Shown: positions 49,044 to 53,525 of the stretch, one piece after another
Numbering within the stretch: position 1 is the stretch's first letter
Layout: each line of letters begins with the position of its first letter
Origin: Escherichia coli
GTDB taxonomy: Bacteria > Pseudomonadota > Gammaproteobacteria > Enterobacterales > Enterobacteriaceae
Assembly (NCBI RefSeq): GCF_013315695.1
Contig: NZ_CP054356.1
Length of the DNA stretch: 64,000 nucleotides
Strand: one strand, 5' to 3'
Program-made: the position numbers and the translations under genes
The notes under the pieces: generated by a model
What the model saw: the letters and a program-made list of their open reading frames with translations, nothing else
Databases searched by the model: none
Told to the model about the DNA's origin: nothing

Positions 49044-49529
49044 ATGATAATGAGATGTTTAACCCATATTACTCTGGTAACGGTGATACAGTTTATCGCC
49101 TGTTATCTGGCTGGTTGGGGGAATGCCGAAACAATTTTTATGCTGTTCTTCATAGTACTATGGCAGGGACTGTTTATATGGTTGTTCTCTCAAATACGAA
49201 AAAAACGGAATGTGTCGGATGAGTTTAAGTTTAGTAAAGGCGTTTGGTATATAACGATGCCAGTATCTTCCTTACTCTCTCCATTATTAAGCCTGATGGT
49301 TTTTATCATTGGTACACTATACGAATTAAGGCGAGTTAGTGGTTGTGTAAGCGTAAGAGAATGGATGCAATCTCAGGTAAATGAACAAACTAATGAAGAT
49401 TTGCATCTGGATTTTGATAATATGGATTTTCATCGTACTAATCCTGCAACAGGGTTACCTATGTCAGGTATTGGTGTGGATATCGGTGGTAATTCATATG
49501 GTTATAGTTCAAAACGATATGATGAGTGA
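49044..49529 (+). CDS. traS: Entry exclusion protein TraS
   Basis: Hydrophobic inner-membrane protein directly after traG. Confidence 0.75.
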   Translation: MIMRCLTHITLVTVIQFIACYLAGWGNAETIFMLFFIVLWQGLFIWLFSQIRKKRNVSDEFKFSKGVWYITMPVSSLLSPLLSLMVFIIGTLYELRRVSGCVSVREWMQSQVNEQTNEDLHLDFDNMDFHRTNPATGLPMSGIGVDIGGNSYGYSSKRYDE

Positions 49530-49574: not shown

Positions 49575-50309
49575 TTGATGAAAATGAAAAAATTGATGAT
49601 GGTTGCACTGGTCAGTTCCACTCTGGCCCTTTCAGGGTGTGGTGCGATGAGCACAGCAATCAAGAAGCGTAACCTTGAGGTGAAGACTCAGATGAGTGAG
49701 ACCATCTGGCTTGAACCCGCCAGCGAACGCACGGTATTTCTGCAGATCAAAAACACGTCTGATAAAGACATGAGTGGGCTGCAGGGCAAAATTGCTGATG
49801 CTGTGAAAGCAAAAGGATATCAGGTGGTGACTTCTCCGGATAAAGCCTACTACTGGATTCAGGCGAATGTGCTGAAGGCTGATAAGATGGATCTGCGGGA
49901 GTCTCAGGGATGGCTGAACCGTGGTTATGAAGGCGCAGCTGTTGGTGCAGCGTTAGGTGCCGGTATTACCGGCTATAACTCAAATTCTGCCGGTGCCACA
50001 CTCGGTGTAGGCCTTGCTGCTGGTCTGGTGGGTATGGCTGCAGATGCGATGGTGGAAGATGTGAACTATACCATGATCACGGATGTACAGATTGCAGAGC
50101 GTACTAAGGCAACGGTGACAACGGATAATGTTGCCGCCCTGCGTCAGGGCACATCAGGTGCGAAAATTCAGACCAGTACTGAAACAGGTAACCAGCATAA
50201 ATACCAGACCCGTGTGGTTTCAAATGCGAACAAGGTTAACCTGAAATTTGAAGAGGCGAAGCCTGTTCTCGAAGACCAACTGGCCAAATCAATCGCAAAT
50301 ATTCTCTGA
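49575..50309 (+). CDS. traT: Surface exclusion / serum-resistance lipoprotein TraT
   Basis: [21 protein letters not shown] lipobox; matches TraT. Confidence 0.95.
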
Positions 50310-50511
50310 ACCTCGTCAGGAGGCTGATCTGACCGGCCTCCTTGCTGACGCCTCGCGTTGCTCGTTGTCCAACCCCGGGATGTAACAAAATAAATTTTGT
50401 CACCTCCCGGCGTTTCCGAAATAAATATGAAAACACTGAGCGGTTGTGCAAATTCTTTGTGCGACCGTGAAGTGTTGCCGGCGAAGCCGGGATCTTCCGG
50501 AGAAAGTCATT

Positions 50512-51249
50512 ATGACATCAGACAATATCGCTGAATATGTTGGTGAGAATAATCAATTTACTGAGAAGCCTGTAACTGAATACCCCCCGGTGATACAGGA
50601 TAATACAGTGACCACTAAAGACTATCTGTACAGCAATAATATTGATACTGACCTTTTAGTGGTTATCGGAGGGCTTATTGTTATATTGTTTCTCATGATG
50701 CTTATCATGTACTTTATTAATTCTCTCAGGCATAAGGAATTAACTGAAATACTGGAAAAAATATCTTTTCCTGAAAAATCCGGGAGCAATTTGCTTAAAC
50801 CGGAGGCGGTCAGCTGTAATTTGTTGTCCCTGTGTGTGCTGGCACCGGTACTCTGTACACCCAGAAAGCTGGCAGAAGTCTCCAGGGAGATCATCGTGGC
50901 GAGTGCGCAGGAAATTGCATGGACGCCGGGGAGCAGTCGTATTGATGGTCATCAGGGCGAAAATATTACCTGGTCTCTGTCATCGCAGTCTCCTGCCGAT
51001 AAGTATGATCTCATCAATAAAACCTCCCGTGTTTCTCCTGACAGTGGCCGTTTTTATGAACCGGACACAGTTCTGGATCACCGTGAACGGGTACGCCTTT
51101 TTATTCAGATCCAGTTTCCGCACGGGAGTGACTGGTCTGAAGTATTGCGACTGACTGACATTGTTACAGAGAAGGTCTCTTCCGGCAGGGCTGCAGGCGG
51201 GTATCACCACCGGCATACAGGGTACACCTGGTCTGTTTCTGTGAATTAA
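50512..51249 (+). CDS. Hypothetical membrane-anchored protein inserted between traT and traD
   Basis: RBS GGAG before ATG 50512; one TM helix ([22 protein letters not shown]); AT-rich. Confidence 0.5.
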
Positions 51250-51299
51250 CCCCACATCATCCTTTTCTGCCCTGTTCCAGATTTTCCCGGAGTTTCATC

Positions 51300-53525
51300 A
51301 TGAGTTTTAACGCAAAGGATATGACCCAGGGCGGTCAGATTGCGTCCATGCGTATCCGCATGTTCAGCCAGATCGCCAATATCATGCTTTACTGCCTGTT
51401 TATTTTTTTCTGGATACTCGTTGGTCTGATTTTATGGGTAAAAATAAGCTGGCAGACGTTTGTGAACGGCTGTATTTACTGGTGGTGTACCACGCTGGAA
51501 GGCATGCGGGATTTAATCAAGTCCCAGCCAGTATATGAGATCCAGTATTACGGCAAAACCTTCCGGATGAACGCTGCCCAGGTACTGCATGATAAATATA
51601 TGATCTGGTGCGGAGAGCAGCTATGGTCCGCATTCGTTCTGGCCACAGTTGTGGCACTGGTTATTTGCCTGATCACCTTCTTTGTTGTCTCCTGGATTCT
51701 GGGGCGTCAGGGTAAACAACAGAGCGAAAATGAAGTCACAGGTGGTCGTCAGCTGACAGACAATCCGAAAGACGTTGCCCGGATGCTGAAAAAAGACGGC
51801 AAGGACTCCGATATCCGGATTGGCGACCTGCCGATTATCCGGGATTCCGAAATCCAGAACTTCTGTCTGCACGGCACGGTCGGGGCCGGTAAGTCGGAGG
51901 TTATCCGTCGTCTGGCCAACTATGCCCGTCAGCGCGGTGATATGGTGGTGATTTATGACCGTTCAGGGGAATTTGTTAAAAGTTACTATGATCCCTCCAT
52001 CGATAAAATCCTGAATCCGCTGGATGCCCGCTGTGCCGCATGGGATTTGTGGAAGGAGTGCCTGACACAGCCGGATTTTGATAATACCGCAAATACTCTG
52101 ATCCCTATGGGTACAAAAGAGGACCCGTTCTGGCAGGGTTCAGGACGTACCATTTTTGCGGAAGCGGCGTACCTGATGCGTAATGACCCCAACCGCAGCT
52201 ACAGCAAACTGGTGGACACACTGCTTTCCATCAAAATTGAAAAACTGCGTACCTTCCTGCGTAATTCACCGGCAGCCAACCTGGTGGAAGAGAAAATTGA
52301 GAAAACGGCGATTTCCATCCGTGCTGTGCTGACCAACTACGTGAAAGCCATCCGTTACCTGCAGGGGATTGAGCATAACGGTGATCCCTTCACCATCCGT
52401 GACTGGATGCGTGGTGTCCGGGAAGATCAGAAAAACGGCTGGCTGTTTATTTCGTCGAACGCCGACACCCATGCCTCCCTGAAGCCTGTGATCTCCATGT
52501 GGCTGTCCATTGCCATTCGTGGTCTGCTGGCAATGGGAGAAAACCGTAACCGTCGTGTGTGGTTTTTCTGTGATGAGTTACCCACGTTACACAAACTGCC
52601 GGATCTGGTGGAGATCCTGCCGGAAGCCCGTAAGTTCGGTGGCTGTTATGTGTTTGGTATCCAGTCCTATGCCCAGCTGGAAGATATCTACGGTGAGAAA
52701 GCGGCGGCCACGCTGTTTGACGTCATGAACACCCGTGCTTTTTTCCGTTCCCCGAGCCATAAGATTGCAGAGTTCGCTGCCGGTGAGATTGGTGAGAAAG
52801 AGCACCTGAAAGCCAGCGAGCAGTATTCCTACGGTGCTGACCCGGTACGTGACGGGGTATCGACCGGTAAGGATATGGAGCGTCAGACGCTGGTCAGTTA
52901 TTCCGACATTCAGTCTCTGCCGGATCTGACCTGCTATGTCACTCTGCCCGGACCGTATCCGGCAGTCAAACTCTCTCTGAAATATCAGGCACGACCGAAG
53001 GTCGCTCCGGAGTTTATTCCGCGTGACATCAACCCGGAAATGGAGAACCGTCTGAGTGCCGTACTTGCCGCAAGGGAAGCAGAAGGTCGTCAGATGGCCA
53101 GCCTCTTTGAACCGGAGGTTGCCTCCGGAGAAGATGTGACTCAGGCTGAACAGCCACAACAGCCACAACAGCCACAACAGCCACAACAGCCACAACAGCC
53201 ACAACAGCCACAACAGCCACAACAGCCACAACAGCCACAACAGCCAGTGTCTTCTGTCATCAATGATAAGAAGTCAGATGCAGGTGTGAGTGTTCCGGCA
53301 GGGGGGATCGAGCAGGAGCTGAAAATGAAACCGGAAGAAGAGATGGAACAGCAACTGCCACCCGGGATCAGTGAATCCGGTGAAGTGGTGGATATGGCCG
53401 CTTATGAGGCATGGCAACAGGAAAATCATCCGGACATCCAGCAGCATATGCAGCGTCGTGAAGAGGTGAACATTAATGTGCACCGGGAGCGCGGGGAGGA
53501 TGTTGAGCCGGGAGATGATTTCTGA
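51300..53525 (+). CDS. traD: Type IV coupling protein TraD
   Basis: 741 aa; Walker A GTVGAGKS; C-terminal QPQ repeats. Confidence 0.95.
53151..53246 (+). repeat. Tandem 9-bp repeat (CAGCCACAA)x10 encoding (QPQ)n in TraD C-terminal tail
   Basis: Ten perfect tandem units visible at 53151-53240. Confidence 0.9.

Follow-up and report, generated by a model that had tools for sequence, protein, structure and literature searches.

The gene described here lies between traT and traD in an F-like transfer operon of Escherichia coli, and its closest described counterpart is yhfA of plasmid R100, the product of which (WP_000199905.1) has the same length (245 aa; 738 bp) and is encoded in the same traT-traD slot, behind the same leader and the same ribosome site. 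In an earlier study, plasmid ORFs were compared with R100, the protein was named YhfA, and F was found to have no similar ORF (PMC2762410). AlphaFold DB/UniProt entries are also named "YhfA" (e.g., A0A8E6JR21), and every current annotation seen for the ORF reads "hypothetical protein." A search of the literature retrieved only the name YhfA and one RNA-seq table, with no functional work. The plasmid gene is presumably unrelated to the chromosomal E. coli gene of the same name.

A more distant counterpart is found in Klebsiella IncFIIK plasmids (P0103-type; pUHKPC33-113.638kb and others of pKpQIL size). This homologue shares the slot, the leader hairpins, the layout, and the invariant residues with the E. 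coli protein but is only 23% identical to it overall, is shorter (229 aa), and contains more cysteines.

Among other proteins of such transfer systems, TraS of F-like plasmids resembles YhfA in being a small inner-membrane protein that belongs to the same variable island, exists as discrete allele types, and is encoded by AT-rich DNA. The two proteins nevertheless show no sequence similarity, and a comparison of YhfA with TraS models gave no match in NCBIfam or Pfam. YhfA also differs in combining a single helix with a large soluble domain and in having an allele type that is unlinked to the TraS type, and the traS slot is already filled, at this locus, by an ORF at 49044..49529. TraJ of the IncHI1 plasmid R27, a membrane protein encoded beside the coupling-protein gene of an F-type mating system, is reportedly needed for transfer, whereas YhfA is evidently not required for F-type transfer because F lacks yhfA.

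We analyzed a 64,000-nucleotide stretch of E. coli DNA (contig NZ_CP054356.1 of RefSeq assembly GCF_013315695.1), referred to below as the window, in which an original prediction had pointed to a membrane-anchored ORF inserted between traT and traD, with a possible role in exclusion or as cargo.

Results

Identity of the gene and coding evidence

The ORF is yhfA, a known gene of the promoter-distal part of the R100-type (IncFII) F-like transfer operon. Over approximately 1 kb around it, the DNA matches pUTI89, pRS218, and numerous further E. coli plasmids at 100% identity, and the window allele is the pUTI89 variant (WP_000199901.1). The R100 allele is separated from it by 9.5 non-synonymous differences, with the N-terminal part 99% and the C-terminal part 95% identical, a difference that is not of substance. 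The gene, its neighbors, and its signals are located in the window as follows:

49044..49529, + strand: R100-type ORF at the traS position, 161 aa, AT-rich (R100 ORF match; 37.2% GC)
49575..50309, + strand: traT, the upstream neighbor (NCBIfam NF010291 TraT equivalog, 546 bits; 100% identical to R100 TraT)
50499..50502, + strand: Shine-Dalgarno sequence GGAG, 9 nt before the ATG at 50512 (read from the sequence)
50512..51249, + strand: yhfA-type ORF, 245 aa plus stop (ORF list; annotated CDS in pUTI89 and R100; dN/dS)
50583..50588, + strand: C6 homopolymer inside the yhfA ORF (sequence; point of frame change in the decayed copy of L009)
51300..53525, + strand: traD (coupling protein), the downstream neighbor (ORF list and annotation)

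The reading frame extends over 738 bp, from the ATG at 50512 to a stop codon ending at 51249, and exactly the same CDS is called by RefSeq annotators in pUTI89 and R100. It is the ATG-initiated portion of a longer, 267-aa GTG ORF. The GTG at 50446 was rejected as the start for lack of a ribosome site and because the ATG at 50512 is the annotators' choice; an AGA/GGAG motif is retained in the homologous leaders. The ORF claimed in the original prediction is present at its full 245 aa and with a GGAG ribosome site, but the accompanying description of it as AT-rich fits only its first 95 codons (35.1% GC), which resemble the traS-position ORF in this respect, and neither codons 96 to 245 (52.2%, equal to traD) nor the ORF as a whole (45.4%). 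Taken together, the dN/dS values and an architecture kept at 21 to 32% identity indicate that the ORF is a genuine gene, not a chance ORF.

The traS-position ORF is 99% identical to its R100 counterpart and 21 to 29% identical to the other TraS types examined; RefSeq lists it as a "hypothetical protein," and it has no NCBIfam match. On the other side of yhfA, traD is preceded by a ribosome site (GGAG at 51289-51292). A terminator scan of the 50-nt gap between yhfA and traD yielded no terminator-like site, and a promoter scan upstream of the yhfA ORF yielded no convincing sigma-70 site. Near the C-terminus of TraD, window positions 53154-53243, inside traD, encode ten tandem PQQ repeats (QPQQPQQ...), the length of which could vary among plasmids.

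The order traG, traS-like gene, traT, ORF, traD, traI was constant at every locus read with flanking sequence, the exception being L005, in which the family member is separated from traD by a DUF2726 ORF. All YhfA family members with a readable neighborhood are located upstream of traD, on the same strand and after a structured leader. In the next spacer of the operon, traD and traI abut in the window and in R100, and F carries a vapBC toxin-antitoxin pair on the opposite strand (L002 3967-4592), as do L009 and L010, so that this spacer is also dimorphic.

Distribution among plasmids

With a coverage of 80% or more of the yhfA ORF, PLSDB yields 1,796 plasmids. The traT-traD junction had been described as normally short, which is true of F-type plasmids (approximately 1,890 PLSDB records) but not of the approximately 1,790 records with the ORF. 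About half of E. coli F-like plasmids carry yhfA. The ORF is present in 1,156 of 5,426 complete E. coli genomes, where 1,397 of its 1,401 places are plasmid-borne. Another 2,324 plasmids, for the most part conjugative ones of Klebsiella, contain the Klebsiella-type homologue (P0103). When 1.84 billion representative proteins were searched with the family profile, the search gave only 67 matches, nearly all of which were fragments of the YhfA family, and revealed no family member in any other identifiable setting; one match to a thyroglobulin-type repeat was discarded as spurious. On these searches, the family is taxonomically narrow yet very abundant.

As a sequence feature, yhfA is ordinary, having stood in the R100 record for decades and being present in about one fifth of complete E. 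coli genomes. It is a known gene that belongs to the canonical IncFII backbone and does not represent a novel insertion there. The notion of an unusual insertion is contradicted by R100 itself, the canonical IncFII plasmid, which has the same gene at the same place, and by the divergent homologues that share the slot.

Probable ancestry and repeated loss

The window and F are collinear, with near-identical sequence, from the end of traT to approximately position 50491 and rejoin approximately 20 nt before the traD ATG; the divergent stretch in between measures about 805 bp in the window and 60 bp in F. We considered whether the 60-bp spacer of F is a recognizable remnant of the ORF and rejected this, as the alignment is limited to roughly the final 20 nt ahead of traD. 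Homologues at 21 to 32% identity are found in the same traT-ORF-traD slot in L005 (an E. coli plasmid with a TraD only 49% identical to that of the window), L006 (a Klebsiella grimontii plasmid), L016 (a pKpQIL-size Klebsiella pneumoniae plasmid), and L011 and L012 (two further E. coli lineages). In the short junction of Klebsiella plasmids, the leader and some 40 initial codons of the ORF are retained and the next 650 bp are missing, and approximately 650 Klebsiella plasmids show this remnant of about 40 codons; on the pattern of retained codons, the Klebsiella short junctions are shown to be internal deletions of the ORF. Because divergent homologues share the slot and these short junctions are deletions, the ORF-bearing arrangement is probably ancestral; losses of the gene have occurred repeatedly, through deletions, frameshifts, or insertions of IS elements. 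Loss of yhfA is also the most likely history of the other short-junction plasmids and of F, for which we infer it.

Decayed copies were encountered in L009, which is frameshifted at the C6 run, and in L010, where an internal deletion removes the start of the membrane helix, and the protein database contains many truncated YhfA clusters. The frame change of L009 within the C6 run (50583-50588) could reflect slippage or a sequencing error. In two plasmids, IS66-family and ISEc8 insertions interrupt the 5' part of yhfA and leave a 3' fragment beside traD (L007 2856-3880, CP048936; pEntH10407 ORF080-083).

The traT-traD spacer also houses unrelated ORFs, namely, a 203-aa ORF in L009 (2155-2766), an 86-aa ORF in L010 (2573-2833), and the DUF2726 ORF in L005 (4436-4939), and an NCBIfam search with these ORFs gave no match. 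Small accessory genes have a hot spot in this spacer.

Structured leader and expression

The DNA between the traT stop codon and the ribosome site of the ORF corresponds to a structured leader, within which two distal hairpins were distinguished:

50310..50495, + strand: structured leader, from the traT stop to the ORF ribosome site (folding z-score; conservation in F and R100-type plasmids)
50432..50476, + strand: long leader hairpin (compensatory changes between the E. coli and Klebsiella types)
50478..50490, + strand: short hairpin CCGGC-GAA-GCCGG (one compensatory pair, GC to CG)

The 200-nt interval from traT to the ORF has a minimum free energy of -78.2 kcal/mol, with a z-score of -4.68 relative to shuffled controls, and the leader (50310-50495) forms four to five hairpins. 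It is common to F, where it directly precedes traD, and to R100-type and Klebsiella plasmids, where it precedes yhfA; in the alignment, the F-type and R100-type sequences part just 3' of the hairpin at 50478-50490. Between the E. coli and Klebsiella types, the hairpin at 50432-50476 shows two double-sided and four single-sided pair changes and no broken pair, and the covariation of the two distal hairpins provides modest support, as it amounts to roughly one evolutionary contrast. The hairpin element that had been noted upstream of the ORF is hence real, in the form of a structured leader with compensatory pair changes. An Rfam search with the leader gave no match. In L009, an additional ORF separates traT from the leader, so that the leader is carried along with yhfA/traD. 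The element could act on the distal tra genes at the level of read-through, stability, or translation.

In RNA-seq data for pBIC1a, the hypothetical gene between traT and traD had an RPKM of 8, with traD at 7 and traT at 282 (PMC6286996); pBIC1a is one Klebsiella-type plasmid, and we infer from plasmid type alone that its ORF is a family member, because plasmids of that type carry the P0103-type homologue. These values suggest that yhfA is transcribed with traD and not with the strongly expressed traS and traT.

Protein architecture and fold

The product of the yhfA-type ORF is predicted to be a bitopic membrane protein with three parts:

50512..50652, + strand: residues 1-47, acidic hypervariable tail, predicted periplasmic (charge, allele identity, AlphaFold pLDDT)
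50653..50721, + strand: residues 48-70, single transmembrane helix (hydropathy, basic flank, model helix)
50797..51246, + strand: residues 96-245, conserved alpha/beta domain, predicted cytoplasmic (predicted model)

The tail contains 2 basic residues (K+R) against 9 acidic ones (D+E), has an AlphaFold pLDDT below 50, and is only 22 to 33% identical between allele types. Across the 19 residues 48-66, Kyte-Doolittle hydropathy averages 3.2, and the AlphaFold model places a helix at residues 46-84. The N-terminal transmembrane helix of the original prediction is recovered as one strong helix, but at residues 48-70, with the 47-residue acidic tail preceding it. All full-length members (11/11) share one layout, in which an acidic tail (about 45 residues) is followed by a single helix, a basic stretch, and a domain (about 145 residues); in each of the 11, the tail has 1 to 4 K+R and 6 to 9 D+E, and the basic flank lies C-terminal to the helix. 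By the positive-inside rule alone, the tail would be periplasmic and the conserved domain cytoplasmic. The domain contains 3 to 7 cysteines across members, one of which is conserved, and this fits a reducing compartment.

When the C-terminal domain was modeled alone, it reached a pLDDT of 83.1 and a pTM of 0.83, and its elements follow in the model the order beta-alpha-beta-beta, long loop, beta-alpha-beta-beta. Residues 99-117 had been a candidate for a second membrane helix, which was rejected since they form a confident core beta-strand in the model. The alignment identifies P139, G140, R143, D145, W154, G179, P184, G229, G230, G237, and T239 as invariant, and the window ORF has the family motifs PG-R-D, W, GG, and GYT.

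Searches for a known relative were largely negative. Neither the query nor any of the 11 aligned members matched Pfam; in NCBIfam, the query and the divergent members gave nothing meaningful, and no curated conjugation family matched. Only marginal matches, in the transmembrane region, were obtained from PADLOC and PHROGs, the PADLOC-DB defense models returning none for the query and one such marginal match for L005 (E = 0.0056). The YhfA profile found no match among PDB sequences (best E = 0.52), and Foldseek against AFDB50 returned YhfA itself and about a dozen uncharacterized proteins at 10 to 16% identity, from Enterobacter, Citrobacter, Kosakonia, Pantoea, and Pseudomonas syringae; A0AAW8HD37, A0AAP9QIY0, and A0A8T8CB46 are examples of these structural relatives. 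No solved fold convincingly matches the YhfA domain in the PDB sequence-profile and Foldseek AFDB50 searches. In comparison with the TraT lipoproteins, YhfA has an acidic N-terminus with neither a signal peptide nor a lipobox cysteine, and it gave no PF05818 match.

Evolutionary rates and allele types

For the window, R100, and L008, dN/dS of the C-terminal domain is 0.17 to 0.19, and the domain is under purifying selection. Over the whole yhfA ORF, dN/dS is 0.24 to 0.29, compared with 0.03 to 0.08 for traD; in the first 95 codons, dN exceeds dS, on very few substitutions. The identity of neighboring proteins and of the two parts of YhfA to those of the window (%) was as follows:

L006: TraS 29, TraT 83, TraD 82, YhfA N-terminal part 22, YhfA C-terminal part 29
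L011: TraT 95, TraD 97, YhfA N-terminal part 33, YhfA C-terminal part 92
L008: TraS 21, TraT 100, TraD 99, YhfA N-terminal part 91, YhfA C-terminal part 91
F: TraS 28, TraT 100, TraD 99, YhfA absent

On these comparisons, YhfA is constrained yet fast-evolving, with an N-terminal part that occurs in discrete allele types. These types do not correspond to the TraS type, and TraD bears no mark of the presence of YhfA.

Discussion

The explanation that we prefer, tentatively and with low confidence, is that YhfA is a dispensable inner-membrane accessory factor co-expressed with TraD. Its site of action would be the cytoplasmic side of the donor's inner membrane, where YhfA would modulate the coupling protein TraD or the inner-membrane transfer platform and so tune transfer without being required for it. 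Consistent with this are the synteny with traD, which is retained even where TraD is only 49% identical (L005), the apparent co-expression with traD, and the predicted topology, and its dispensability is supported by the lack of the gene in F and the existence of decayed copies. A partnership with TraD is, however, less easily reconciled with the 99% identity between the TraD proteins of the window and of F, which lacks yhfA, with no sign of co-adaptation, and with the far faster evolution of YhfA (29% against 82% identity in L006), which is unusual for a stable partner in a conserved machine. The synteny could also reflect an insert-tolerant site, given the unrelated ORFs found in the same spacer elsewhere.

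The main rival, which we regard as rather doubtful, is that YhfA is a conflict-interface protein that acts beside traS and traT in the plasmid-bearing (recipient) cell. What the variable periplasmic tail would recognize or block is an incoming transfer apparatus, a plasmid in competition, or a phage that depends on the pilus; beside traS and traT, YhfA would then constitute a third determinant of specificity. YhfA indeed changes faster than TraT as well as TraD (29% against 83% and 82% in L006), its allele types are discrete over the 95 N-terminal residues (33% identity there and 92% in the C-terminal part in L011), and dN exceeds dS in this part, on few changes. The N-terminal part is AT-rich in the manner of traS (35.1% and 37.2% GC), and the gene belongs to the most variable island of the operon, where it is polymorphic for presence and absence. 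On the other hand, YhfA has no similarity to TraS, TraT, or any PADLOC defense model, its conserved domain is predicted to be cytoplasmic and thus away from an incoming apparatus, its N-terminal type is independent of the TraS type (TraS 21% and YhfA 91% identical in L008), and its expression in pBIC1a is 35 times below that of traT. Classical exclusion in R100 and F is reportedly attributed to traS and traT alone. The exclusion role that had been suggested from the position of the ORF is possible; YhfA has no TraS or TraT similarity, its allele type is not linked to TraS, and the pBIC1a ORF at this position is transcribed at the level of traD and not at that of traS and traT.

It is unlikely, in our estimation, that yhfA is hitch-hiking cargo unrelated to conjugation, that is, a host- or niche-directed membrane protein residing in a tolerant, transcribed spacer. 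Unrelated ORFs do occupy the same spacer in L009, L010, and L005, the spacer that follows in F contains a vapBC module, and the gene has often been lost without loss of the transfer genes. Free cargo would, however, be expected in other contexts, and none was seen among the 67 matches in 1.84 billion proteins; the family is almost confined to F-like plasmids (1,397 of 1,401 places in E. coli are on plasmids), and every readable context is traT-traD, across lineages in which TraD differs by up to 51%. The earlier suggestion of cargo retains some merit in that the gene is absent from F and dispensable there, and "accessory or cargo-like" is a fair description. That yhfA is decaying or functionless and is maintained by linkage, without selection for a protein function, is very unlikely, for although frameshifted, deleted, and IS-interrupted copies are common, truncated clusters are numerous in the protein database, and dN/dS for yhfA lies at three to nine times the traD value, the C-terminal domain has a dN/dS of 0.17 to 0.19 and a confident, compact predicted fold, and frame and architecture are intact at 21 to 32% identity in Klebsiella, Raoultella, and E. 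coli lineages.

Beyond the accessory factor co-expressed with TraD that we prefer, a bolder and decidedly speculative proposal, in which we place little confidence, is that YhfA may be an unrecognized component of F-like conjugation with a fold that lacks a characterized relative, either a regulator of TraD or a third, allele-specific determinant in conflicts between plasmids or between plasmids and phages. If this were true, the presence or absence of yhfA would divide the resistance plasmids of E. coli and Klebsiella into two behavioral classes. The gene is among the few in F-like transfer operons that have neither a family nor a recognizable fold, and it occurs in thousands of IncFII and IncFIIK plasmids of clinical importance that confer resistance or virulence, among them pUTI89-like plasmids and those of pKpQIL size. 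The approximately even split between plasmids that have yhfA and plasmids that have lost it, on near-identical traT and traD flanks, constitutes a natural experiment, which could show whether yhfA influences transfer rate, exclusion, phage sensitivity, or plasmid cost.
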